A stretch of 64,000 nt of DNA from assembly GCF_905198475.1 (NCBI RefSeq), contig NZ_CAJKCQ010000001.1; one strand, 5' to 3'. Each line of letters begins with the position of its first letter. Within the stretch, counting starts at the first letter, position 1. Below the pieces are notes generated by a model. That model did not search any database, was not told the origin of the DNA, and saw only the letters and a list, made by a program, of their open reading frames with translations. The translations under genes were made by a program, and so were the position numbers. The stretch is from an uncultured Sutterella sp. (GTDB taxonomy: Bacteria; Pseudomonadota; Gammaproteobacteria; Burkholderiales; Burkholderiaceae_F). Of the stretch, positions 6,208 through 61,455 are shown in pieces.

Positions 6208-6873
6208 TTAGCGCGCAAGTCGCCACCAGTCGAGCACTTTTTTGACGACCTCCTCAATGCCCATGTCGGAGGTGTCGAGTTCGCGGGCGTCCGCGGCGGG
6301 TTTGAGCGGGGCGGCGGTGCGCTCGCGGTCGCGTCGGTCGCGCTCCTCGAGGTCGCGCGTCAGGGCCGCGCGGTCGGCCTTTTCGCCGCGCGACTCAAGC
6401 TGCCGGGCGCGGCGCTCGGCGCGCACCGCGGCCGAGGCGGTCATGAAGACCTTGAGGGGCGCCTCGGGGAAGACCACCGTGCCCATGTCGCGGCCGTCGG
6501 CGACGAGCCCCGGGGCGACGGCGGCGTTGCGCTGCAGGTCAAAGAGCGCCGCACGCACGCCCGGCACCGCGGCCACCTTCGAGGCGGCGACCCCGACCTC
6601 TTCGGTGCGGATCACGCGGCCGACGTCGCGGCCCTCCAGCCACACGCTTCCCTCGCGGAAGACGGGTCTGAGGCTGCGCGCGACGGCTTCGAGCGCGGCC
6701 GGGTCGGCGAAGTCCGCCTTCGCCTCGAGGGCGGCCAGGGCGGCGAGCCGATAGAGCGAGCCGCTGTCGAGGTAGTGAAATCCGAGCGCGGCTGCGACGC
6801 GCTCGGCGATGGTGCCCTTGCCGCTCGCGGCCGGGCCGTCGATGGTGATGACGGGAACGTTCACTTCGTTCAT
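6208..6873 (-). CDS. cmk: Cytidylate kinase
   Basis: MNEVNVPVITIDGPAASGKGT (P-loop). The six-frame ORF runs on upstream only because there is no stop codon in this high-GC stretch. The start ATG at 6871-6873 overlaps the serC stop. Confidence 0.85.
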   Translation of the reverse strand: MNEVNVPVITIDGPAASGKGTIAERVAAALGFHYLDSGSLYRLAALAALEAKADFADPAALEAVARSLRPVFREGSVWLEGRDVGRVIRTEEVGVAASKVAAVPGVRAALFDLQRNAAVAPGLVADGRDMGTVVFPEAPLKVFMTASAAVRAERRARQLESRGEKADRAALTRDLEERDRRDRERTAAPLKPAADARELDTSDMGIEEVVKKVLDWWRLAR

Positions 6874-8027
6874 TTTTCTGCTTCCTTCCGAACGGGTCGG
6901 GACGCCGCCTTCGCGGGGGCGCCCGCGGCGACGGTGGTCTTCGGGGGACGTCGATGGGCGAAGTCCTTCATGAAGGCGACCAGGGCCTCGGCGCCCTCGA
7001 CGGGCATGGAGTTGTACATGGAGGCGCGGATGCCGCCCACGGTGCGGTGACCCGCGAGGTTCGCGAGTCCCGCGGCCGCGGCCTCGCGCACGAAGACCGG
7101 GGTGAGCGATTCGTCGCGCAGGCGGAAGACCACGTTCACGCGGCTCCGCGAGCCCGGCGCGACGTGGCAGACGTAGCTCTCGGACATCTCGTCGATCGCG
7201 TCGTAGACCATCTTGGAGCGCACGCGGGCGAGTTCGTCCATCTTCGCCACACCGCCCTGGGATTCGATCCACTGCGCCATCAGGCCCGCGACGTAGAGCT
7301 GGAAGACCGGGGGCGTGTTGGGAATGCTCTCCGTGCGGCTGTAGACGCCGTAGTTGAGGAGCGTGGGGACCTCCGTGGTGGCGAGCCCGAGGAGGTCGCG
7401 CCTCAGAATCACCACGGCGAGGCCGGCGATGCCGAGGTTCTTCTGCGCCGCGGCCCAGACGAGGCCGAAGCGGGAGACGTCCACCGGACGCGTCATGAAG
7501 TTGCTCGACATGTCGCAGACGAGCGGCACGGCAGGCGTCTCTTCGAGCGTCGGGGGCGCGGGGAACTCCACGCCGTGGATCGTCTCGTTGTCGCAGTACG
7601 CGCAGTAGCTCGTTTCGGGAATCACCTCGAGCTCGGCGTCGTCGGGCGCGCGCGTGCCCGACCCCGAGAAGGCGGTCTGCACGCGGCCGAAGCGCAGCGC
7701 CTCCTTCGCGGCCGCCTTGCTCCAGGCGCCCGTGATGATGTAGGTCGAAAGCGTGCCCGCGCCGAGCAGATTCATCGGCACCATGGCGAACTGCATGCGT
7801 CCGCCCCCCGGGCAGAAGAGCACGTCGTAGTTGTCCGGCACCGAGAGGAGCGAGCGGATGCGCGCGCGCAGGTCCCGCATCAGGGCGGCGACTTCGGGGC
7901 CTCGATGACTTGCCTCGAGGATCGAGCAGCCGCATCCGCCGTAGTCGAGCAGTTCCGTCTGAATCCGGCGCAGCACGCGTTCGGGGAGCATCGCGGGACC
8001 GGGAGCAAAGTTGTAGGGACGCGCCAT
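6870..8027 (-). CDS. serC: Phosphoserine aminotransferase
   Basis: MARPYNFAPGPAMLPERVL... class-V aminotransferase. The stop TGA overlaps the cmk ATG as ATGA. Confidence 0.85.
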   Translation of the reverse strand: MARPYNFAPGPAMLPERVLRRIQTELLDYGGCGCSILEASHRGPEVAALMRDLRARIRSLLSVPDNYDVLFCPGGGRMQFAMVPMNLLGAGTLSTYIITGAWSKAAAKEALRFGRVQTAFSGSGTRAPDDAELEVIPETSYCAYCDNETIHGVEFPAPPTLEETPAVPLVCDMSSNFMTRPVDVSRFGLVWAAAQKNLGIAGLAVVILRRDLLGLATTEVPTLLNYGVYSRTESIPNTPPVFQLYVAGLMAQWIESQGGVAKMDELARVRSKMVYDAIDEMSESYVCHVAPGSRSRVNVVFRLRDESLTPVFVREAAAAGLANLAGHRTVGGIRASMYNSMPVEGAEALVAFMKDFAHRRPPKTTVAAGAPAKAASRPVRKEAEK

Positions 8028-8110: not shown

Positions 8111-10924
<2,814 letters not shown>

Positions 10925-14239: not shown

Positions 14240-14607
14240 GGGGGCGCCTTGGTTTCGACGGGGATGCTGACGCTGAGCGGTGCATGCCGAGGGGTAGTGA
14301 CCTCGTAAATCTCTGCTACAAAAACACAAACGCCAACAACAAGCGTTTCGCTCTCGCGGCCTAATCCCCGCGGGATGCTGCACTGATTTGTCTTTGGGTC
14401 AGGCAGGGTAAAACCTGCGGCAGCATCAAATTACAAAGTCTAGGAACGGCGAGTGTCTCCGGCGACGTTCCGAAATCAAGGGGACTGGGCAGCCGCTGGC
14501 CCGTCGATTGGCAAAACGGCTGTTGAGATTCAAATGATTCGACTACGCATGTAGATCCATCAGAAAACGGTTTCCGGACGCGGGTTCAACTCCCGCCGCC
14601 TCCACCA
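14240..14607 (+). ncRNA. ssrA: Transfer-messenger RNA (tmRNA, SsrA)
   Basis: 5' GGGGGCGCCTTGGTTTCGACGGGGATG... and 3' ...GGACGCGGGTTCAACTCCCGCCGCCTCCACCA are collinear with E. coli tmRNA. The internal tag reading frame GCC AAC AAC AAG CGT TTC GCT CTC GCG GCC TAA gives the tag ANNKRFALAA. Confidence 0.85.
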
Positions 14608-14647: not shown

Positions 14648-14741
14648 ATAACTACGAAACCCGCTTCAATTCGCGCAGCATTGTTGTTTCCCATCCGGCC
14701 TAGTGCTCCATTCCTGCGCGGCCAACCCGCGCGCAACGGCT

Positions 14742-17714
14742 ATGAAGCAGCACGATCCACGCAAGGGCGCACACCAATTCATCAAAACCTGGTCCGGCAA
14801 GGGCTATGAAAAGGGGGAGAACCAACCTTTCTGGCTCTCGCTACTGAAGGACATCTTTGGTGTAGAGAATCCCGAAAATCTCCTCGTCTTTGAGCAGCCC
14901 GTCTTCAAGCGCGATGAAATTCCCGCCCGTCGTTTGGGTTTCATCGACGCCTGGATTCCCTCCTCCCGCGTGCTGATCGAACAAAAAGGCCTTGGCCACG
15001 CGCTCGACAAGACTCAGAAACAGTCGGACGGCTCGATGCTCACGCCCTTCCAACAGGGCAAGCGCTACGCCGACAACCTCACGACAAAGAACCGGCCGCG
15101 TTGGATCATCGCCTGCAACTTCGAGTCCTTCGAAATCCATGATCTCGACAATGAGGACCCGAACGCCAAGCCTGAGGTGATCCTTCTCAAGGATCTCGAG
15201 ACGGAGTACTACCGCCTCGGCTTCCTCGTTGACTCCGCCCATGACGTGGTGAAGGCGGAAACGAAGCTCTCCGTTGCCGCCGGCGAAATTGTGGGGCGCC
15301 TTTACAACGGTCTCCTCGCGCAGTACATCAACCCCGACTCCGAAGAAGTGCGCCAGAGCATCAACAAGCTCTGCGTGCGTCTCGTCTTCTGCCTCTACGC
15401 CGAAGATGCGCTGCTCTTCAAGACGAAGTCGCAGTTCCACGACTACCTCAAGGGGCTCGATCTGCGGTGCACCCGCTATGGGCTTCAGGCGCTCTTCCGC
15501 GTCCTCAACACCCCTGAAGATCAACGCGACCCGTACGACGACCCAATGCTCCTTGACTTCCCCTACGTCAACGGAGGCCTCTTCGCCGACGATGCCATCA
15601 TCATTCCGCAGCTCACGCCCGAACTGAAGGAACTGCTCCTCAGCGACGCGAGCGAGAACTTCAACTGGGCTGAGATCTCGCCCACGATCTTCGGCGCCGT
15701 CTTTGAGTCAACATTGAACCCGGACACGCGCCGCAAGGGCGGCATGCACTACACCTCGGTCGAGAACATCGAAAAGGTCATCAATCCGCTCTTCATGGAT
15801 GACCTCAACCGCGAGTTTGCCGAGATCATGCGCGGCAAACAGGCGGCCTCACGCATGCGCAGGTTGAAGGCCTTTCAGGAGAAGCTCGGCAAGCTTCGGT
15901 TCCTTGACCCGGCCTGCGGTTCGGGCAACTTCCTCACGGAGACCTACCTGCAGCTGCGGCGCCTCGAAAACAAAGTCATCTTGGAGCTCAACGCCGGCGC
16001 TGGTCAGTTCGACTTCGGCGGCGAGCACTCGCCCGTCAAGGTGCAGATCAATCAGTTCTACGGCATTGAAATCAACGACTTCGCCTGCTCCGTCGCGCAG
16101 ACGGCGCTCTGGATTGCCGAGAGCCAGATGCTCAAGGAAACCGAGGACATCATCGGCGCCGTTCTCGACTTCTTCCCGCTCAAGTCCTTCACCAACATTC
16201 GCGAAGGGAACGCCCTGCGCTTTGACTGGCGCACTCTGCTTCCTGAAGACGGATCGAACTTTACTTTCATCATGGGCAATCCACCGTTCTCGGGCGCACG
16301 ACTGATGACGGATGAAAACAAGGCGGACGTGAAGGAAACGTTCGGTTCCAACTGGGCCAATGCCGGCAACATCGACTATGTCGGCTGCTGGTTCAAGCGC
16401 GCCGTCGAGATCATGCAGGGGACGACCACGCGCACGGCCTTCGTCGCCACGAATTCCCTCTCTCAAGGCGAGCAGGTTGCGAACCTCTGGAAGCCGCTGG
16501 TCGAGCAGTACGGCGCCCACATCGACTTCGCCTATCGGACCTTCCGTTGGGACAGCGAAGCACAGGACAAGGCGCACGTGCATGTCGTGATTGAAGGGTT
16601 CAGCACGGCTGAAAACTCCAAGCCCCGCGTGCTTTTCGACGGCGCTGACATCCTTGAGGTTCCGAACATCAATGCCTACCTCCTTGATGGTCCTGACTGT
16701 TTCGTTGCAAGCCGCAGCACGCCTCTGTGTGACGTCCCGGAAATCGGTATCGGCAACCAGCCGATCGACGATGGCAACTACCTCTTCACAGAAGAAGAGA
16801 AGAATGACTTCGTGAAGAAGGAACCCCTGTCCGAAGCTTTCTTCAAGCCTTGGTACGGATCTTTTGAATTCATCAACCGCGCGCCGCGTTGGTGCCTTTG
16901 GTTGGGCGACTGTCCGGCCGCCACGCTCGCCAAGATGCCGTTGGCGAAGGCGCGCGTCGCAGCAGTTCGGCGATACCGGCTGAACAGCTCGCGTGAGGGG
17001 ACGAAGAAACTGGCCGATACGCCTCGACGCTTCCTTGTCGAAAACATGCCGTCGAGCAACTACATTCTGGTTCCCAGCGTCTCATCCGAACGACGACGCT
17101 ACGTACCGATGGGCTTCATGACGCCTGATGCGCTCACAAGCAACCTCGCGCTGCTCATCCCCAACGCTACCCTCTATCACTTCGGCATTCTCACAAGCTC
17201 CGTCCACATGGCCTGGATGCGGGCAGTTGCCGGCCGTCTAAAGAGCGACTACCGCTACTCGAAGGACATCGTCTACAACAACTTCGTCTGGCCTGAAGTG
17301 ATGGAAAAGCTCAGAGAGAAAATCGAACGGACGGCACAGAAGATTCTCGATGCCCGTGCGGCGGAGCCTGATGCATCGCTCGCCGTACTCTATGACGACG
17401 ATTCGATGCCCGACGACCTGCGTGCCGCGCACGCCGCCAACGACCGCTTGGTGCTCGAAGCCTACGGACTTTCCGGCGACTCAGATGAAGCGACGATCAC
17501 CGCGCATTTGATGAACCTCTACGTCCGAAAGGCCACAGAAGTGGATCGCCGCGACGCCGTGGAAGCTACGCTCGTCAAAATCCTCGGCAAAGGTTGCGAG
17601 GGCGTTCCTGAATGGCTCTCCGCCCTTCATGCCGATGCGCTTGCCGGGAAAATCACCCCTGAGGAACTGCTTGAGCAGGGGCGCGTTCTCAAGAAGGCTC
17701 AGAAAGCCAAGTAG
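14742..17714 (+). CDS. MmeI-family Type IIL/IIG restriction-modification enzyme (PD-ExK endonuclease fused to an N6-adenine DNA methyltransferase and target-recognition domain)
   Basis: The N-terminus aligns with the MmeI nuclease core (GFIDAWIPSSRVLIEQKGLGHALDK versus MmeI GFVDLFWPGILLIEMKSRGKDLDK; D-x-EQK). Methyltransferase motif I is FLDPACGSGNFL and motif IV is NPPF. Total length is about 990 aa. GC is visibly lower than in the flanks. An alternative GTG start is at 14703. Confidence 0.75.
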   Translation: MKQHDPRKGAHQFIKTWSGKGYEKGENQPFWLSLLKDIFGVENPENLLVFEQPVFKRDEIPARRLGFIDAWIPSSRVLIEQKGLGHALDKTQKQSDGSMLTPFQQGKRYADNLTTKNRPRWIIACNFESFEIHDLDNEDPNAKPEVILLKDLETEYYRLGFLVDSAHDVVKAETKLSVAAGEIVGRLYNGLLAQYINPDSEEVRQSINKLCVRLVFCLYAEDALLFKTKSQFHDYLKGLDLRCTRYGLQALFRVLNTPEDQRDPYDDPMLLDFPYVNGGLFADDAIIIPQLTPELKELLLSDASENFNWAEISPTIFGAVFESTLNPDTRRKGGMHYTSVENIEKVINPLFMDDLNREFAEIMRGKQAASRMRRLKAFQEKLGKLRFLDPACGSGNFLTETYLQLRRLENKVILELNAGAGQFDFGGEHSPVKVQINQFYGIEINDFACSVAQTALWIAESQMLKETEDIIGAVLDFFPLKSFTNIREGNALRFDWRTLLPEDGSNFTFIMGNPPFSGARLMTDENKADVKETFGSNWANAGNIDYVGCWFKRAVEIMQGTTTRTAFVATNSLSQGEQVANLWKPLVEQYGAHIDFAYRTFRWDSEAQDKAHVHVVIEGFSTAENSKPRVLFDGADILEVPNINAYLLDGPDCFVASRSTPLCDVPEIGIGNQPIDDGNYLFTEEEKNDFVKKEPLSEAFFKPWYGSFEFINRAPRWCLWLGDCPAATLAKMPLAKARVAAVRRYRLNSSREGTKKLADTPRRFLVENMPSSNYILVPSVSSERRRYVPMGFMTPDALTSNLALLIPNATLYHFGILTSSVHMAWMRAVAGRLKSDYRYSKDIVYNNFVWPEVMEKLREKIERTAQKILDARAAEPDASLAVLYDDDSMPDDLRAAHAANDRLVLEAYGLSGDSDEATITAHLMNLYVRKATEVDRRDAVEATLVKILGKGCEGVPEWLSALHADALAGKITPEELLEQGRVLKKAQKAK

Positions 17715-21367: not shown

Positions 21368-21687
21368 GTTGTTCTCCTCACTGCGCTTGTGTTCTAAGAA
21401 ATTGATTACGCAATGCTTTTCTTTGTTATTAGATCCTAATGCCTAGTACTTTCGGAGACATCCGTGATAGCCCTAGCGTCATGGAGGATCTGTGGCGCCG
21501 ACTCGGCCGCTGCGCCTCCCCGGCGCCCCGCCTTCAAGCATTGCGGGAGTGCGGACCGCGCCCGGGGCGATGGGCGCACGAGCGTCCGAAATTGAAACCC
21601 CCCGTCAAATTTCGATTCCTCTCCGCTCCGGCCAACCGATAATGGATGAATCAGCTGATTCATCTCCTTACGGGAGGCGTTATTTCC

Positions 21688-24195
21688 ATGGCAAAGGTTC
21701 TCAAGTTCACCGCCTGCGCCGCCGCAGTCGCCGTCGCGCTCTACGCCGCCGCGGGCTACGTCGGCGTGCCTTATGCGACGCGAACGGTCGTGGAGAAGAC
21801 GGCGTCCGAAATGCTCGGCCGCACCGTCACGCTCAAGGACGTCACCTTCAATCCCTGGACCTGGGTGTATGAGATCAAGGGGCTCGAGATTCCCGAGCCC
21901 GGCTCCGAGCCGCTCCTCAAGCTCGCGCTCCTGCGCATCGACGCTTCTTCGCAGACGCTCTTCAAGCTCGCTCCGGTTCTCGATGAGGTCACGATCGACG
22001 GCCTTCAGGTGAACGCCGTCATGAACGAAAAGAACAAAAAGGACTTCGAGCGGCTCACGGGCGGCTCCGGCGATGCGGGGGCGAAGTCCTCGGGGTCGTC
22101 CTCCGCAGGCTCGTCGGGGCTGCCGAAGTTCGCGCTCTACAACATCTCGCTCACCAATTCGTCCCTGCGTTATCAGGACAAGGCCGCCGGGATCGACGAG
22201 TCGGTCACCGACCTCACGGTGAAGCTGCCCTTCGTCTCGACGATGGAAAGTTCGAGCGAGAGCCTCGTGACGCCGGAGCTTTCGCTGAAGCTCAACGGCT
22301 CGCCCATCGAGGCGACGGGTTCGACGAAGCCCTTCGGCACCACGCTTGAGGCGCAGCTCAACCTCAAGATCGCCTCGCTCGACGTCGGCGCGCTCGCACG
22401 CCTCGTGCCCGCACTGCAGGGCGACAAGCTCAAAGTCGCGGGCGCCAAGCTCTCGAGCGACCTCAACTTCATCTTCCGCAATCCCACGGGCGGCAAGCCC
22501 GCGAAGATGCTCCTCTCGGGGCGCACCACGCTCACGGACGTTTCGGTGACGCACAAGGGCGCCACGCTCGTCACGCTCCCGAAAGCGGACGTGACGGTGG
22601 GCGAAGTGGACCTCGTCGGCAGGAAGGCGGTGGTGCAGAACGTCACGGTTTCCGGACTCAAGGTCCGCGCGGCGAAGACGAAGTCCGGCATCAATCTCCT
22701 CGAGGCGGTCGAATCGGTCTCGGGGAGCCCGGCGGCCAAGTCGGGCAGCGCCGAACCCGCCTCGGGCTCGAGCTCCGGCCCGGACGCCGCCTGGTCGTGG
22801 CGCGTCGCCTCCGCCTCGCTCACGAACGCCGACCTTTCCTGGTCGGACGCGACGGTGAGCCCCGCGGCGAAGCTGGGGCTCTCGAACCTCAACGTCACGG
22901 TGAAGGACCTGTCGTCTGAAAAGAACCATGCGGGATCCTTCACGGTCGCCGCGGACGCCCTCGGCGGGCACGTCGAGGCGTCGGGCACGGTCGCGCCCGC
23001 TCCGCTCGCGGTTGCCGCGGCGGTCCGCGGCTCGCGGCTCACGTTGAACGCCGCGGCGCCGTACGTGAAGGCGGCCCTCGGCGCGGACCTGCGCGCGGGG
23101 ATCGCGTTCGACGTCAAGGCGGACGTGGGGGGCGGGAGCGCCAAGGCCTCCGGGTCGGCGACCGTCTCCGACCTGCTTCTGCGCCGAGGACAGACCACGA
23201 TGGCGAGCGCGAAGACCGTCACGGTGAAGATCGCCGGCGTGGACACCGCGAAGCGCTCGGCCGATGTTTCGCTCATTTCGGTCGCGAGCCCCCTCGTGAA
23301 CGCCGTGATGACGAAGAAGGGCCTCAACTTCGCCGAGCTCGGCGGCACCTCCTCCGGCGACGGGAAGAAGGCGGAGGCGGCGAAGAGCGCCAAAGCGCAG
23401 GGCGCCGGCGCAGCGTGGAGCTGGAAGGTGGGCGAAGCCTCCGTCACGAACGGTACGCTGCGCTTGCGCGACGAATCCGTGAGGCCCGTCGCCTCGGCCG
23501 AAGTCCCGAAGCTCAACGTCGTCGTGAAGAACCTCTCCTCGGCGAAGGACAGCCTCGGCACGCTGAACCTCACGAGCGGGCTCGGCGGCGGGTCGCTCGC
23601 CGCCGCGGGCAAGGTCGGGATCTCGCCCCTTGCGGCCGACCTGGAGGTGAAGGGCTCGCAGATCGGACTCAAGCCCTTCTCGAGCCTCATGACCGCGTAC
23701 GCGGGCGTGGGCGCGAAGGGCGGCTCCATCGACTCGACGGGACGCCTCTCGCTGAAGACCGTGAAGGAGAAGACCGTCGCCGGTTGGAAGGGCGACCTTT
23801 CGCTCACCGGCCTCGACCTCACGACCGCTTCCGGCGCCGGCCTCATGAGCTGGAGGAAGGCCTCCCTCACCGGGGTGGATCTCGAGACCACCGAACCGCT
23901 CCACCTCGTCGTGACGAAGGCCGAAATCGACCAGCCCGCCGAGAAGCAGACGAAGGCCGTGCGCGAGATCGCCGGCATCGCCTCGCTCATCTCCTCGCTC
24001 ACCGGCCGGGAGAAGACCGCCGAGAAGATCGAAAAGTACTCCGGGAAGCTCTCGGGCTCGATCGTCCTTGAGAACATCCGCTACGAGAACGGCAAGTTCT
24101 CCGCCGCGGGCGTCAGTGAAGCCTCGTTGGGCGGCCTCATCCTCGAGAAGCTCTCCTCGTCGGTCGGGGCGAAGCTCAACGCCACCTCGAAGTAG
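21688..24195 (+). CDS. Large DUF748/AsmA-like periplasmic protein with an N-terminal membrane anchor
   Basis: MAKVLKFTACAAAVAVALYAAAGY TM helix, then about 800 aa of repetitive Ala/Ser/Gly/Thr/Lys-rich beta-rich sequence with repeated WSWRVASASLTN / WSWKVGEASVTN modules typical of DUF748. The assignment is tentative. Confidence 0.5.
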   Translation: MAKVLKFTACAAAVAVALYAAAGYVGVPYATRTVVEKTASEMLGRTVTLKDVTFNPWTWVYEIKGLEIPEPGSEPLLKLALLRIDASSQTLFKLAPVLDEVTIDGLQVNAVMNEKNKKDFERLTGGSGDAGAKSSGSSSAGSSGLPKFALYNISLTNSSLRYQDKAAGIDESVTDLTVKLPFVSTMESSSESLVTPELSLKLNGSPIEATGSTKPFGTTLEAQLNLKIASLDVGALARLVPALQGDKLKVAGAKLSSDLNFIFRNPTGGKPAKMLLSGRTTLTDVSVTHKGATLVTLPKADVTVGEVDLVGRKAVVQNVTVSGLKVRAAKTKSGINLLEAVESVSGSPAAKSGSAEPASGSSSGPDAAWSWRVASASLTNADLSWSDATVSPAAKLGLSNLNVTVKDLSSEKNHAGSFTVAADALGGHVEASGTVAPAPLAVAAAVRGSRLTLNAAAPYVKAALGADLRAGIAFDVKADVGGGSAKASGSATVSDLLLRRGQTTMASAKTVTVKIAGVDTAKRSADVSLISVASPLVNAVMTKKGLNFAELGGTSSGDGKKAEAAKSAKAQGAGAAWSWKVGEASVTNGTLRLRDESVRPVASAEVPKLNVVVKNLSSAKDSLGTLNLTSGLGGGSLAAAGKVGISPLAADLEVKGSQIGLKPFSSLMTAYAGVGAKGGSIDSTGRLSLKTVKEKTVAGWKGDLSLTGLDLTTASGAGLMSWRKASLTGVDLETTEPLHLVVTKAEIDQPAEKQTKAVREIAGIASLISSLTGREKTAEKIEKYSGKLSGSIVLENIRYENGKFSAAGVSEASLGGLILEKLSSSVGAKLNATSK

Positions 24196-56771: not shown

Positions 56772-57155
56772 TCAGAAGAGCTTTCTGATCACCACGGTGA
56801 CGGGAAAGCCCACGTGCTTTTCGCTCTCGACGTCTTCGCCGATGTCGAGCGAGACGACGCGCCAGCCGGCGTCGCGCAACTCGTCGAGCCGCGCCGAAAC
56901 GCCAAGGTCCGCGCACGCGAAGGGCATCTCCTTCACGCGCGAGAGCACCGTCACGGGCCGTTCGGTCGTGCAGGTGGTCTCCGAGTGGTAGGGCGCGTCG
57001 AGAAGCGGATCCCGCCCGCTCGGCGCCGCAGCTCCCTCCGTGCCGGTGCCGGACGCTCCGCCGCCCTGACGGGCGGACTGCGGTGCGGCGCAGCCCGCGG
57101 CGAGCGCCGCGGCGGCGGCAAGGGCGAGAAGTGCGCGGACGGTTCGTTTCTGCAT
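56772..57155 (-). CDS. Small lipoprotein of unknown function
   Basis: MQKRTVRALLALAAAAALAAGC lipobox (LAAGC), about 127 aa. Start at 57155 rather than 57206. Confidence 0.5.
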   Translation of the reverse strand: MQKRTVRALLALAAAAALAAGCAAPQSARQGGGASGTGTEGAAAPSGRDPLLDAPYHSETTCTTERPVTVLSRVKEMPFACADLGVSARLDELRDAGWRVVSLDIGEDVESEKHVGFPVTVVIRKLF

Positions 57156-57202: not shown

Positions 57203-60200
57203 TCACTCGCCGCGGGGCTTCTTCTGGAACTTGGAGCGACCGCGCGGCGCGCCGCTCCGGTCACCGCCGCCGTGGCCGCCGGACTTTCTGAACTTCTGGA
57301 ACTTGCGTCCGCCCGAAGGCTTCACCTTGTTGTCGGGCTGGCTGCTGCCGAAGATCGTGCGCGGCACCTCAAATCCGGACTCCCCGGGCATCGTCTGCGC
57401 GAAGGAGAGCGTCTGCGGACGGTCGGCCGCATAGGCCTCGGCCGTCTGCCAGGGCATCGCCGCGGCCGCGGCGCGCTTCGGGCGGTAGTGGATGGAGTTG
57501 CCGAAGTTGTCGTCGGCGCCGCCCTCGTCGCTGAAGCCGCGCTCGACGGGCGCCTCTGCGTCGCCCGTCTTGCGGGCACGGCGGTCCTTGTCGCGATGGC
57601 GCCGCCCCTTCTGCTGACCCTGCTGGTTCTGCTGATCGCGCCGGCGCTTCTGCTTTCCGCCCGCCGGACGCGTTTCGGCGCCGGGGGCGGCCTCTCCGGC
57701 CGTCTGTGGTGCGGCGGCCGTCCCCTCAGGGACGCCCTCGGGCATCCGGGACGCCTCGACGGGCGCGGCAGCCGCAGCCGCAGCCGGAGCGGGGGCGGCG
57801 GCCTGCACGGGCGTCTCCTCACCCTCCTGGCGCTGCTTGCGGCGCTTGTTGTAGGGCGTGCGCAGCGACCCGCCCTTCTTCTGCGCGTTGTGCTGTTTGC
57901 GGTTCTGCTTCTGCGCGGGCTTCGGACGGCGCTCCTCTCCGGAGACGGGGAGCGACCCCTCGCCGGGCACGGTGAGCGCCTCGGCCGCGTAGTCCTCCGC
58001 GAGGAACGCGGGCTGAAGGCCCTTCTCCCGGGAGCGCTGCTGCTTCTGGTGCTGCTTGTTCTTCGCGCCCTTCTGGAAGTTCTTCTTCTGGCGGCGGCGT
58101 TCGCCGTCCTTTTCGCCGCGGCGGCCCGAAGGCTGAGCCGCGAGGATGCCCTCCTGCTCGGCGGGCATGGCGTCGCCCGCACGGCGCTTGGGCCGGCGGA
58201 TGGTGCCGCGGCGGCCGACCATCTGGTGCGTGAGGCGCTCGCCGCCCTTCATTTCGCGGCGCATGCGCTCCTGCGCGGCGCGCAGCTCCACGGTGTTCGA
58301 GGAAAGCGGCTCCGTGATCGTCACGACGGGCTCGTCCTTCTCCTTGCGGGGCACGTAGCCCGAACGGATGGTGAGCGTGCGGCGATGCGGCGCTTCGTCG
58401 CCGGCATCCCCGGCATCCTCGTCGTGCTCATGGCCGTACGCCTCCTCATCATCGGCGTACTCACCGTCGTCCTCGAAGTCGTCCTCCTCGAACTCCTCGT
58501 CTTCGCCGGCGTCGTCCCATTCGGCGTCGTCGTCATCGAACGCTTCGTCCTCGGGGAGCTCGTCCTCGTCTTCGTATTCGTCTTCGTATTGAGCGCCGTC
58601 GTCTTCGAAGGCCTCTTCGTTTTCGTGCGCGGCCGCGTCATCCTCTAAGGAGGCGCCGGAAGCTTCCCGCGCGTCGTCCTCGCCGACTCCGGCGGCAGCC
58701 TCTTCTTCGGCCTTTTCCCCGGCCTCTTCTCCGGCCTCCGGGCCGGCTTCTTCAGCGCGCTCAACGGGCGCTTGGCAAGGCGCCTCGACGGAGGTCTCGT
58801 CGGGAGCGGCAGGCGTCTGCGCTTCGGGCGGGCGCGGCGTTTCCGGCGCCCGAGCGTCTTCATCAGGAGCGCACGGGGCGGGTTCGGCCGCCGCCTCGGC
58901 GGGTTCTCGTGGTTCGGCCGCCGCGGAAGCGAGGGCGGGGACGGGCGCGGAGGCGGGTGCGTTCACGCCGTCGACCATCTTGAACAGGTCTAGATGGTCC
59001 GCATCCTGCGGCTCCGTGGCCGGCGCTTCAGACTCGGCCTCCGGGGCGCCCGCGGCGGACTCCGCTCCAAGCTCGACCACGCGGCCATCGCCTTTGAGCT
59101 GCGCCTCCCAGACGATGTCGGTGAGATCGAAGACGGCGTCCGAAAGTTCTTCGGCGGCCGAGTCAACGTCTCCGGATTCGTCCGCCTGAGCGCTCCCGGC
59201 CGCTTCGTCGGCCGGCTTCAGGGCGCCGGCCTCTTCGAGGAACGTCCAGGGCGTCTTCACGCTGACGGGCGTCCCCTTGGGAGCGGCCGGACACGCCTCG
59301 TCGGGCTGAGCCGCGTCGTCCTGCGCCTCAGCGGAACAGCTCTTCCCGCGGGCGGGCAGAGGCGGCAGTCCGACCTGGCTGCGCGCATGATTCAGCGCCC
59401 TCACGCAGCGGTTTTCGTACCCCTCGAGCGTCTCGAGCGCGCTCGGGATGATCTCATTCTGCCCCCCGGTGCAGTCGAGGAGCCTCCAGGAGCTCGGCCG
59501 GATCTGCGTGCGCAGGCAGTTCCACTCCCTGTACTGGTTCTCGAGGCAGAGGGTGAGGGCGAAGCCGCACCAAGGACGGCGCTTCGTCGGCTCGAACCAA
59601 GCGAGCGCCGCGGCGCTTTCATATTCGCCGGCATCCTCGGGAATCGCGTGGAAGACCACCACGTCGAACATCCCCTGCGGGAAGGTCTTCGCCGCCTGCT
59701 CGAGGTCGGCCACGGCGCAATGGGCGCCCATCAGCTCCATGTTCTTTTCGACGACGCCGGCGGCGTCGCGTTTGCGGACGGCTACGGCGGGCACGTCCGC
59801 AGCGTTGAGCATTTCAGCGATCTTCGAGACGCGGCGGTTCACGGTGAGCACGAGCACGCGCACTTCGCGCGGGAATTGAGCCGCACGCTCGCAGAGCGTC
59901 AGGGTGCGCTCGTTGTGCCGCACGAGGTCGAAGCGCTCCAGGAGCCTCGGCGCGCCATAGCGTCCGAAGGCGCGGAGGATCTTCATGTTCGGGAAGCGGC
60001 TCTTCACGCGCTTCTCACAGCGCTTCTGGATCTCGTCGGAGAGGAAGAACAACCGCTCCTCGGCCGACTTGGGCAGCCGCTTGAGGACCTTCTCGAGCCT
60101 CGGCAGGCCCATTGCCGTGTCAAAGACCTCCATTGCGCAGAAGACGCCGACCATCTCGACGCCGTCAAGGTCGAGCTTGAAGCGGTCGCACGCCCAGTCG

Positions 60201-60610
60201 ATGAAGTTGGCCCGTCCAAGGATCAGGTCCACGCCGAGGATGCTGCGCTGCGCGCGGGCGATGTCGCCGCCCTCGCCGAGGACGAGCGCGCTCAAGTGGG
60301 TCCCGGCAGTAAGCGCTTCAAAACGCGCGCACAGCGTCACGGCCTCCGCGTCGGTCTCGGTGATGATCAAGGCCCGGGGCCGGCGGTTCGGGTCGAGCGG
60401 CCTGCCTGCGCTGCCCGCGTAGAGCTTCGCGGCGATCCCGAGCAGGGCGGCCGAGCGCTTGCCCGACCCCCTGTGCGCTTCGAGAATGAAGGATTCGTCG
60501 CGGGCAATGGACATCAGGATCTGGTCCTGCGCGGACGTCGTCTCCTTCCAACCGAACACACTGATCCGGCGCAAAAGGACTTCGGGCAGCTGATGGGTCG
60601 AAAAGTTCAC
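57203..60610 (-). CDS. DEAD-box helicase-like protein with degenerate catalytic motifs and a ~700-aa acidic/basic disordered C-terminal region
   Basis: The N-terminal 380 aa are collinear with RhlE-type DEAD-box helicases (MNFSTHQLPEVLL versus MSFDSLGLSPDIL). Motif I is AHRGSGKRS (canonical AQTGSGKT); Ia is ITETDAEA (PTRELA); II is CAME (DEAD); III is LSD (SAT); VI (HRIGRTGR) is absent. It continues without a stop into a poly-acidic block (EDEYEDEDELPEDEAFDDDDAEWDD...) and then Lys/Arg/Gln-rich blocks. Proposed GTG start at 60608-60610 with GGAAAG upstream; the six-frame ORF extends to 60781. Confidence 0.6.
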   Translation of the reverse strand: MNFSTHQLPEVLLRRISVFGWKETTSAQDQILMSIARDESFILEAHRGSGKRSAALLGIAAKLYAGSAGRPLDPNRRPRALIITETDAEAVTLCARFEALTAGTHLSALVLGEGGDIARAQRSILGVDLILGRANFIDWACDRFKLDLDGVEMVGVFCAMEVFDTAMGLPRLEKVLKRLPKSAEERLFFLSDEIQKRCEKRVKSRFPNMKILRAFGRYGAPRLLERFDLVRHNERTLTLCERAAQFPREVRVLVLTVNRRVSKIAEMLNAADVPAVAVRKRDAAGVVEKNMELMGAHCAVADLEQAAKTFPQGMFDVVVFHAIPEDAGEYESAAALAWFEPTKRRPWCGFALTLCLENQYREWNCLRTQIRPSSWRLLDCTGGQNEIIPSALETLEGYENRCVRALNHARSQVGLPPLPARGKSCSAEAQDDAAQPDEACPAAPKGTPVSVKTPWTFLEEAGALKPADEAAGSAQADESGDVDSAAEELSDAVFDLTDIVWEAQLKGDGRVVELGAESAAGAPEAESEAPATEPQDADHLDLFKMVDGVNAPASAPVPALASAAAEPREPAEAAAEPAPCAPDEDARAPETPRPPEAQTPAAPDETSVEAPCQAPVERAEEAGPEAGEEAGEKAEEEAAAGVGEDDAREASGASLEDDAAAHENEEAFEDDGAQYEDEYEDEDELPEDEAFDDDDAEWDDAGEDEEFEEDDFEDDGEYADDEEAYGHEHDEDAGDAGDEAPHRRTLTIRSGYVPRKEKDEPVVTITEPLSSNTVELRAAQERMRREMKGGERLTHQMVGRRGTIRRPKRRAGDAMPAEQEGILAAQPSGRRGEKDGERRRQKKNFQKGAKNKQHQKQQRSREKGLQPAFLAEDYAAEALTVPGEGSLPVSGEERRPKPAQKQNRKQHNAQKKGGSLRTPYNKRRKQRQEGEETPVQAAAPAPAAAAAAAPVEASRMPEGVPEGTAAAPQTAGEAAPGAETRPAGGKQKRRRDQQNQQGQQKGRRHRDKDRRARKTGDAEAPVERGFSDEGGADDNFGNSIHYRPKRAAAAAMPWQTAEAYAADRPQTLSFAQTMPGESGFEVPRTIFGSSQPDNKVKPSGGRKFQKFRKSGGHGGGDRSGAPRGRSKFQKKPRGE

Positions 60611-61125
60611 GTTCTTTCCAGCATGAATGGACGTTCCACCTTCGGCATGCGTCGTGCACGGACGGCTCGGATGCGGCGCGCCCCATGGGGCGCGGCGGAC
60701 GGAGCGGCGGAACCCGGCTGCGGGCGCGCAACGGTGCGCACGGCCGGAAATTTGAATTGGGGCAACGTAGGCCGGCTGCATCCGCAGCCGCTTTCCGGAG
60801 CGCTTGCGGCTCCGGAGGGCCGGGCGGTGGTGGTGCGCCGCCCGGACAAGGGAAGGACCGGGACGGGAGGCGGGCGCAGCCGCGCCCTTGAATCATCAGA
60901 GGGACAACCTGCACTCCGCGTGGGCGTCTCCGAACGGAGCCTGAATTCTCCGGCGCGAAAGGGGAGTCGCCCCGTCTGCGGTCTTCGCAGGCCGGATTTT
61001 AGCAAACGGCGCCGGCGCCCGAGCACCTTTGGAAACCGCCCCTGCGGGCCCGGTATGATGCTACAGGACGGCCGCGGCAGCGGCCTCCTCCGCACGACAA
61101 ACCCACTTTCAAAAAGAGAAGCATC

Positions 61126-61455
61126 ATGGCCCTCAAGGAACTCATCATCGAAGATCTCGTCCCCGGCGAAGGCGCCGCCGTCAAGTCCGGCGACCACGTG
61201 AGCGTCCACTACACCGGCAGCCTCGAGGACGGCACCGTCTTCGACTCGAGCGAAGGCCGCGGCCCGCTCGACTTCACCTGCGGCGTCGGACTCGTGATCC
61301 CCGGTTGGGATCAGGGCCTCATCGGCCTCAAGAAGGGCGGCAAGCGCCGCCTCTCGATTCCCGCCCGCCTCGCCTACGGCGAAATGGGCTATCCGGGCGT
61401 GATTCCGCCCAACGCGGACCTCTACTTCGACGTCGAACTCGTCGACATCCGCTGA
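61126..61455 (+). CDS. FKBP-type peptidyl-prolyl cis-trans isomerase
   Basis: [16 protein letters not shown]...[29 protein letters not shown]...[12 protein letters not shown] is an FKBP12-like domain, 109 aa. Confidence 0.8.

Follow-up and report, generated by a model that had tools for sequence, protein, structure and literature searches.

The DNA analyzed here, referred to as the window, is a 64,000-nucleotide stretch of contig NZ_CAJKCQ010000001.1 from an uncultured Sutterella species (assembly GCF_905198475.1). A gene on its minus strand (57203..60610; GTG start codon at 60610, stop codon at 57203-57205) encodes a protein of 1135 amino acids (aa) and 124 kDa, in which a helicase-like core is followed by a disordered tail of ~765 aa. 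On balance, we favor the reading that this protein is a Sutterella-specific pseudo-helicase, derived from RhlE, that serves as a noncatalytic RNA-binding adaptor or scaffold and functions mainly through its tail. It is a pseudoenzyme by an operational definition: the fold is homologous, the catalytic residues are lost clade-wide, and the gene is under purifying selection. The protein belongs to the DEAD-box superfamily by descent and fold, yet it fails both the catalytic and the hidden Markov model (HMM) definitions of that superfamily. Below, group A denotes the long form represented by the window gene, groups B and C denote paralogue groups, and individual loci are given as L numbers.

An AlphaFold2 (AF2) model of residues 1-370, built from a 90-sequence alignment, shows two alpha/beta RecA-like domains, with a predicted local distance difference test (pLDDT) score of ~85 and a predicted template modeling (pTM) score of 0.69. 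The model, Foldseek, and the motif alignment place domain 1 at aa 1-206 (59993..60610, minus strand), which holds Q28, the P-loop AHRGSGKRS, and degenerate motifs Ia, Ib, II, and III, and domain 2 at aa 207-370 (59501..59992, minus strand), in which motifs IV-VI are degenerate. The top 50 Foldseek matches listed from the PDB are all DEAD-box proteins (E values of 1e-15 to 9e-19), and the alignments span 370-490 columns and cover both domains. Hera (4kbf, 8.6e-19) ranks first, and CshA (5ivl), eIF4A/eIF4AIII, MjDEAD, and DbpA are also among them. A phmmer search of the PDB returns Hera at 6e-5 and CshA at 1.3e-4, and the core query in a word-indexed protein search gives no match. The preliminary description of this DNA had recognized a DEAD-box paralogue with a retained RecA-like fold, which the model and the Foldseek matches bear out. 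The HMM search that it proposed does detect Pfam DEAD (PF00270), but at 21.9-22 bits, below the gathering cut-off of 26; the domain is found at E<=0.01 in only six of 10 family members, and Pfam Helicase_C (PF00271) matches none of the 10. Among NCBIfam models, the window protein scores highest with RhlB, but the 27.4 bits fall far short of the cut-off of 564, and the RhlE, RhlE1, and RhlE2 models do not match it. The homology to DEAD-box helicases is therefore weak in sequence yet real, with the modeled fold settling the matter.

The motifs of the core were compared in the 90-sequence alignment, 84 members of which are canonical DEAD-box proteins. The glutamine of the Q motif is kept as Q28, although neither the GFxxPTxIQ flank nor the upstream aromatic residue around it is conserved. 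Motif I (AQTGTGKT) reads AHRGSGKR, with His in place of Gln, within a P-loop remnant at aa 45-53 (60452..60478, minus strand) delimited by invariant alignment columns. Motif Ia (PTRELAxQ) reads ETDAEAVT, and the TPGR motif reads LGRA. The motif II (Walker B) position, at which DEAD would be expected, holds F157-C158-A159-M160 (60131..60142, minus strand), as placed by both the 90-sequence alignment and a pairwise alignment with Hera; the orthologues have VDTE, CEAG, YRAE, YGID, or TYFE there. Motif III (SAT) is S191-D192-E193, and motif V (ARGLD) is AKTFP. Motif VI (HRIGRTGR) is reduced to SAAA, a 5-aa insert, and PTKR, in which perhaps one Arg is left, either R344 in the canonical alignment or, with a shift of one residue, the family-invariant R345. 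The degeneracy reported earlier stands, although the former calls of CAME for motif II and LSD for motif III were each one residue out of register (FCAM and SDE). Because Walker B, SAT, Ia, V, and the arginine fingers of motif VI are lost, we infer from the sequence that the protein lacks an ATP-hydrolysis cycle that drives RNA unwinding.

The tail consists, in order, of an acidic block, a conserved box (box 1), a basic K/R/Q-rich block, a second conserved box (box 2), and a short basic end. The linker and acidic disordered block occupy aa 371-740 (58391..59500, minus strand) and were delimited by composition and by AF2 pLDDT values below 50. Residues 460-740 are 36% Asp and Glu, with a net charge of -90. 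The preliminary description had spoken of ~100 residues that are almost purely Asp/Glu; the region is indeed very acidic, but its densest stretch, aa 655-739 (58394-58648, minus strand), contains 50 Asp and Glu in 85 residues. Box 1 follows at aa 741-823 (58142..58390, minus strand), where it is recognized by invariant columns. The basic, disordered K/R/Q-rich block, assigned by composition, spans aa 824-1031 (57518..58141, minus strand) and has 46 Lys and Arg and a net charge of +20. Box 2 lies at aa 1032-1075 (57386..57517, minus strand), as seen in an alignment that includes groups B and C. The C-terminal end, aa 1076-1135, is rich in Gly, Lys, and Arg by composition, has a net charge of +10, and together with the stop codon covers 57203..57385 (minus strand). 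Taken together, aa 741-1135 contain 84 Lys and Arg (21%), carry a net charge of +38, and are rich in Gln. The Lys/Arg/Gln-rich character noted earlier for the last ~400 residues thus holds, but the low-complexity sequence is interrupted by the two near-invariant boxes. The acidic-to-basic order is kept in all eight orthologues measured, in which the net charge is -30 to -106 for the acidic block, +15 to +33 for the basic block, and +8 to +15 for the C-terminal end.

Boxes 1 and 2 are the best-conserved parts of the whole protein. Box 1 follows the pattern P.RRTLTIR..Y.P...VTITEPLSS.TVELRA.Q.RMRR...THQM.G.RGT...E.EGIL, with RRTLTIR..VTITEPLSSNTVELRA..THQM as its near-invariant stretch. Box 2 follows the pattern DDNFGNSIHY.PK...PWQ...P.TLSFAQTMP. 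In a full-length AF2 prediction, everything C-terminal to about residue 370 is disordered (pLDDT <50) apart from one helix within box 1 (residues 771-788); the sole tail segment with a pLDDT above 60 is ~aa 771-790. The strands T-L-T-I-R and V-T-I-T-E of box 1, together with its Arg-rich helix, resemble an element that folds upon binding, although this comparison is speculative.

The ratio of nonsynonymous to synonymous substitution rates (dN/dS) was determined among three S. seckii-group genomes (dS 0.22-0.34). For the whole gene, dN/dS is 0.15-0.21. Values for the segments are 0.11-0.14 for the core, 0.23-0.33 for the linker and acidic block, 0.00-0.02 for box 1, 0.08-0.15 for the basic block, and 0.06-0.13 for box 2. 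The S. seckii-group coding sequences (CDSs) all have lengths that are multiples of 3 and contain no internal stops, and insertions and deletions (indels) are therefore in frame. The orthologues are likewise degenerate in their motifs and carry the same tail. These results bear on whether the gene is decaying into a pseudogene or is an artifact of assembly or frameshift that joins a helicase remnant to noncoding low-complexity sequence. Such an origin might be suspected from the highly divergent core, with its Pfam DEAD match below the cut-off, and from interrupted group-A copies in six metagenome contigs (L025, L043, L047, L050, L051, and L052), which also count against the assignment that we favor. 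L025 has a gap of a single nucleotide, L043 is missing 25 nt, and the other four have gaps of 1 to 30 nt. The interrupted copies compared are 98.8-99.9% identical to intact genes, and their coverage, where stated, is 1.9-4.2x (2.7x for L025 and 2.0x for L047). Because the stated coverage is low, assembly error is the likely cause, although strain-level inactivation would also account for these copies. By contrast, the open reading frame (ORF) is intact in the window, in two contigs from the same species, in isolates (S. seckii ASD393 and S. wadsworthensis DSM 14016), and in ~35 metagenome contigs. All segments of the window gene have an in-frame GC content at third codon positions (GC3) of 0.75-0.95, and the frame is therefore coding throughout. 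The dN/dS values are far below 1 in every segment, and the best-conserved residues of the protein sit in the very tail that would have to be noncoding. Decay or artifact is thus extremely improbable, and these comparative data show that the gene is maintained.

An uninterrupted reading frame runs from 60781 to 57203 on the minus strand, and the earlier observation that it continues from the helicase-like core into the tail without a stop is correct. Use of its first ATG, at 60781, would give 1192 aa in the ORF listing. This start was rejected; the 57-codon extension is rich in Arg, Pro, and Ala, and the length of the stop-to-stop extension varies by lineage. The GTG at 60610 is the true start. 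Gene calls on the two independent same-species metagenome contigs give 1135 aa (P0001), every orthologue aligns from the MN.S position, the in-frame upstream extension is not conserved and differs in length in each lineage, and a Shine-Dalgarno (SD)-like GGAAAG lies at 60614-60619, 3 nt upstream. P0001 differs from the window protein by 5 aa, all in the tail, with no indels. Most group-A genes likewise combine a GTG start with a weak SD-like box, GGAAA(G/A/C) (window 60610; L003:9368; L004-L006:8001; L008:8001; L055:1357), whereas the S. wadsworthensis and Cebus lineages have an ATG start without an obvious SD. These start codons and weak SD sequences suggest a rate of translation initiation that may be low or regulated.

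The family is confined to one genus. An exhaustive phmmer search of 1.84e9 cluster representatives finds only five full-length relatives (1020-1199 aa, 28-33% core identity, E values of 1e-22 to 1e-38), whereas ordinary DEAD-box proteins appear in the same search only with E values above 1e-8. Core identity between group-A lineages is 28-37%. A family-pattern scan of GTDB genomes yields 16 loci, 15 of which are titled Sutterella, including S. seckii ASD393, S. wadsworthensis DSM 14016, and strain 2_1_59BFAA; the other, L013 (group C), is titled 'Burkholderia sp. UW_FK_SUTT1_1'. A scan of GTDB r232 representatives with window-specific peptides gives no match, and the species of the window is apparently not represented there; its family membership and gene order point to a probable uncultured, Sutterella-like bacterium of 70% GC. 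There are 77 metagenome loci, and the readable source names are human gut or capuchin monkey. Group A comprises at least nine lineages, all from Sutterella or gut metagenomes. In the complete 2.7-Mb chromosome of a canine Sutterella (L015, LR994475.1), the one confirmed pattern match has a group-C-type tail, and its ORF is broken by an ambiguous base (X). Group A may be absent from some Sutterella species.

The paralogues show where the tail comes from. Group B (L011:6759-8549, L014, L017, L018, and L093) consists of proteins of ~600 aa with the canonical motifs PTAVQ, ANTGSGKT, PVRELA, DEGD, SAT, and HRVGRTSR, followed by RPRTLTVKKR. By these motifs, with DEGD in place of DEAD, group B is catalytically intact and RhlE-like, and its best NCBIfam match is RhlE1 (338 bits against a cut-off of 750). 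Group C (L009, L010:6234-8444, L012, L013:6765-8645, L016, L019, and L060-L092) consists of proteins of ~650-740 aa with a degenerate helicase-like core followed by R[EQ]KLT[IV]R..[YF]; here the P-loop is lost too (e.g., GAASAARPE). Profile comparison with hhalign relates the core of group A to that of group B at an E value of 7e-22 and to that of group C at 1.5e-26, and on this basis the three cores are homologous. Groups B and C both end in a form of box 2, DDDNFGNSIHY..W[EQ]..LSLPQ[IM]MP, and RxxLT[IV][RK], an abbreviated form of the opening of box 1, is common to groups A, B, and C. The group C paralogue thus resembles the window protein in its degenerate homologous core, the RxKLT[IV]R that follows it, a basic tail, and a box 2 of the same type, but its P-loop is lost, neither the large acidic block nor a full box 1 is present, and it occupies another locus. 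Because the cores are homologous and box 2 and RxxLT[IV][RK] are common to all three groups, the tail is, on these comparisons, an inherited module of a genus-specific RhlE-like clade that was enlarged in group A, rather than a de novo fusion. The preliminary description had compared the tail to an exaggerated version of the basic RhlE tail. A basic, disordered extension is present, but it is not a fusion unique to this gene, since its motifs also occur in groups B and C.

The gene order nadD-rsfS-rlmH-maf-(small divergent gene or none)-pseudo-helicase is found at all group-A loci examined. The neighbors rsfS, rlmH, and maf hint, though weakly, at a role in ribosome or RNA metabolism. In E. 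coli, rng follows maf (yhdE), and the same holds for other Burkholderiales; a possible link to rng is offered as a lead only. A scan of ten large ORFs of the window reveals no RNase E/G domain and no further DEAD-box gene. A role in antiphage defense was considered and ruled out, given that PADLOC gives no match for the pseudo-helicase and that the conserved synteny is of a housekeeping type. On the 3' side, a lipoprotein gene and the Xaa-Pro aminopeptidase gene (pepP) are the neighbors in L001-L003 and the window. The lipoprotein-type ORF directly downstream is small (125-127 aa, signal ..LAAGC..; window 56772-57155, minus strand; L001:6680-7063; L003:13081-13458), and its product has no match in Pfam, NCBIfam, or PADLOC. 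It could be cotranscribed with the pseudo-helicase gene.

These features suggest how the protein could work. The basic segments of the tail would bind RNA, as in RhlE proteins, and the acidic block could mask these segments in cis. Alternatively, the acidic block could bridge in trans to the basic blocks of other molecules, giving a multivalent, condensate-type assembly; such acid-base contacts would resemble those of the charge-patterned intrinsically disordered regions (IDRs) of RNase E in bacterial ribonucleoprotein bodies (BR-bodies) (PMC9882336). The boxes would dock the protein onto the same partner as the active group-B helicase, for which an RNase E-type degradosome, a ribosome-assembly intermediate, or a defined RNA is a candidate. 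If so, the inactive protein would either assist its active paralogue or compete with it. In a tentative extension of this scheme, which we consider possible although not probable, one active and two dead DEAD-box paralogues would form a genus-specific ribonucleoprotein (RNP) assembly and share a partner through DDNFGNSIHY...W[QE]...LS[FL][AP]Q.MP, with the 1135-aa protein (-90/+38 tail) as a condensate scaffold, a bacterial counterpart of RNase E-type organizers on a pseudo-helicase base, and its P-loop as a nucleotide sensor instead of a motor. The target need not be RNA. Acidic-then-basic blocks and richness in Lys, Arg, and Gln are not RNA-specific, and the RNA-contact motifs of the core are lost, so the protein could instead associate with the nucleoid or with DNA, or act as a polyanion/polycation chaperone, with its core as a structural platform only. 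However, its descent is from RhlE-type RNA helicases, its tail motifs are common to an active helicase, and its neighbors rsfS, rlmH, and maf are ribosome- or RNA-related. A non-RNA target is therefore very unlikely.

Besides the interrupted copies described above, several observations weigh against a noncatalytic adaptor. The boxes have no significant match in the PDB, Pfam, NCBIfam, or PADLOC, and box 1 and box 2 queries in the word-indexed protein search return only ENA fragments. In the full-length AF2 model (multiple sequence alignment of 6 sequences), the boxes are not docked confidently onto the core. Co-occurrence of groups A and C is seen only at the level of a species group, with S. 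wadsworthensis L007 belonging to A and L009 to C. The most pointed observations concern the nucleotide site. Residues G48, G50, and K51 of the P-loop are invariant in all 10 aligned group-A sequences despite the low core identity between lineages, the divergent lineages L008 and L055 keep the P-loop as GEGK, and at least 90% of members retain H46 and Q28. The earlier statement that every catalytic motif is degenerate accordingly applies to Ia, II, III, V, and VI, which are lost, but not to GxGK and Q28, which survive. In addition, an acidic residue (E161 or its neighbor) follows the DEAD position in every member, such that E or D is always found at position 160 or 161. The invariance of GxGK and near invariance of H46 and Q28 may indicate nucleotide binding or unorthodox catalysis with relocated residues.

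The main rival to the adaptor reading is that the protein retains enzymatic activity, as a clamp or switch on RNA that depends on ATP or another nucleotide and has noncanonical catalytic residues; it would use the Q residue, the P-loop, and the acidic residue beside the DEAD site. The dN/dS of the core shows that the core itself is constrained, and some 'pseudoenzymes' have relocated catalytic residues, as reviews point out (PMC10211241). However, the position of the Walker B Asp is occupied by F, V, C, Y, or T and that of the catalytic Glu by C, D, E, R, G, or Y, so nothing is conserved at either. The Mg-binding Thr after the P-loop Lys is replaced by R, I, L, or V in some members and kept as T in others. 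SAT, ARGLD, and the arginines of HRxGRxGR are gone, and the loss of the RNA-binding motifs Ia and Ib leaves the closed ATP- and RNA-bound state without an obvious basis. We consider retained nucleotide-dependent activity, as marked by the invariant P-loop, to be possible but improbable, and the noncatalytic adaptor or scaffold remains the preferred assignment.

The preliminary description had also drawn attention to a ~500-bp noncoding leader. The 515-bp gap (60611-61125) is real, but it is a divergent intergenic region that also serves an FKBP-type isomerase gene (61126..61455, plus strand) and is not purely leader. Facing the gene of interest, a putative extended -10 element, TGCTAAAAT, lies at 60996-61004 (minus strand) and is unique in the 64-kb window. 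Facing the FKBP gene, a sigma-70-like promoter candidate, TGGAAA-18-TATGAT, lies at 61030-61059 (plus strand); it is the only candidate found by a generic promoter scan. The upstream ~135 bp of the leader probably contain two back-to-back promoters. In each of the eight lineages examined, a TAAAAT box precedes the start codon by 303-429 nt, and in five of them it takes the extended -10-like form TTGCTAAAAT. On the basis of TGCTAAAAT and the conserved TAAAAT box, transcription is predicted to start near 60989, giving a 5' untranslated region (UTR) of ~380 nt (60611..60989, minus strand) that is GC-rich, has local hairpins, and ends with the weak SD-like GGAAAG. The gene thus probably has its own promoter, a long 5' UTR, a GTG start, and a weak SD.

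It was asked whether this leader, rather than the protein, is the main interest, as a structured RNA of 380-515 nt (a thermosensor, cold-shock element, or autoregulatory element) that controls expression. E. coli deaD/csdA and rne, which have long regulatory 5' UTRs, provide a precedent. Noncoding DNA of 365-615 bp lies upstream of the gene in all orthologues, with the TAAAAT box in each one examined. Leader divergence within the S. seckii clade is ~0.5x that of four-fold sites (K 0.11-0.27 versus K4 0.19-0.57), and there are strongly conserved patches, so the long 5' UTR is likely under some constraint. The hairpins quoted earlier are present and appear in the minimum free energy fold. The fold energy of the window UTR is -179 kcal/mol, but its z score of -2.1 to -2.2 equals those of the antisense strand (-2.3) and of two coding controls (-1.9 and -2.1; a third gives -0.2). 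Other leaders give -5.6 (L003) and -0.5 (L007). RNAalifold proposes 122 pairs for the S. seckii clade, nine of which have double changes; shuffled alignments give 7.2+-1.5 and reach nine in 90 of 500 cases. The covariation score of the leader does exceed that of the shuffles, but this measure readily yields false positives when sequences are related. On both strands of 60500-61200, no Rfam family, ROSE, FourU, cspA, rne5, and other thermometer or leader models included, is matched at E<=1, and at gathering score Rfam finds only tmRNA and a tRNA in the whole window. Leaders of different clades are not alignable and share by k-mers only the TAAAAT box, plus FKBP coding sequence farther upstream. 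The transcription start, moreover, is a prediction only. A thermosensor or other structured leader is therefore unlikely, and the earlier suggestion of one is not upheld in the form given. Nor does the leader encode a small conserved protein, since six-frame blastp across lineages gives one short match, between two related clades, and no conserved small ORF.

Other large genes of the window include gyrA (8111-10924, minus strand) and a gene for a DUF748 protein (21646-24195, plus strand). An ORF of up to 575 aa by longest-start call (6208-7935, minus strand) encodes a cytidylate kinase in aa 362-569. The tmRNA gene (ssrA; 14240-14607, plus strand; tag ANNKRFALAA) is followed after 95 nt by a gene for a 1003-aa MmeI-family type IIL restriction-modification enzyme (14703-17714, plus strand), a position that suggests an integrated island.

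Bacterial DEAD-box proteins are treated as ATP-driven RNA remodelers, with disordered tails that modulate RNA binding, phase separation, and contact with RNase E. The present family offers a natural experiment: the motor is off, and the tail is enlarged under very strong constraint (dN/dS of ~0 in box 1). We are aware of no published family of bacterial DEAD-box pseudo-helicases, and a search of the literature on Sutterella DEAD-box proteins and on bacterial DEAD-box pseudoenzymes found no earlier description of such a family or of the boxes. If the adaptor or scaffold role is correct, this would be, to our knowledge, the first conserved family of its kind in bacteria. Its two sharply defined motifs could then serve as bait for whatever binds RhlE-type tails, an issue not settled even in model organisms, and the family would offer a clean system to separate IDR-driven from ATPase-driven helicase functions. 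The automated labels 'hypothetical' and 'DEAD/DEAH box helicase' both mislead for group-A genes. The significance is bounded by the restriction to a single genus and by a function that we infer. Because Sutterella is common in the human gut and some of its strains can be cultured (S. wadsworthensis DSM 14016 and S. seckii ASD393), the predictions are nonetheless testable.

Among known systems, the RhlE family is the closest. RhlE proteins such as P. aeruginosa RhlE1 and RhlE2 share with the window protein a two-RecA fold and, C-terminal to it, a long extension that is basic and disordered, and group B (L011), the closest active relative in the genus, links the two by scoring best on RhlE1 and carrying box 2. 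The C-terminal IDRs of Pseudomonas RhlE proteins mediate RNA binding, phase separation, and RNase E contact (PMC11260450, PMC8266600). The window protein differs from this family in lacking DEAD, SAT, and motifs Ia, V, and VI and in matching no NCBIfam RhlE model. Its tail is far longer, an acidic block precedes the basic part, and it contains the two near-invariant boxes, which have no counterpart elsewhere. A second parallel is the C-terminal scaffold of RNase E and IDRs of the BR-body type, in which short linear motifs lie within charge-patterned disorder (PMC4435900, PMC11964227, PMC9882336); in RNase E, such conserved microdomains recruit partners. Both proteins have a folded N-terminal domain, several hundred disordered residues, alternating charge blocks, and short conserved motifs. 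However, they are not homologous. The N-terminal domain of the window protein is DEAD-box-like rather than an S1/5'-sensor/DNase I-like catalytic domain, and its boxes are unlike known microdomains in the searches run. Partner recruitment by the window protein is a proposal. The third comparison is with pseudoenzymes and inactivated helicases. The window protein resembles pseudoenzymes in a fold that is kept, in catalytic residues that are lost, in purifying selection, and in a probable scaffold or regulatory role beside an active paralogue. Brr2 contains an inactive C-terminal cassette, and eIF4AIII clamps RNA in the exon junction complex with its ATPase inhibited. These examples are eukaryotic, and eIF4AIII retains all of its motifs.

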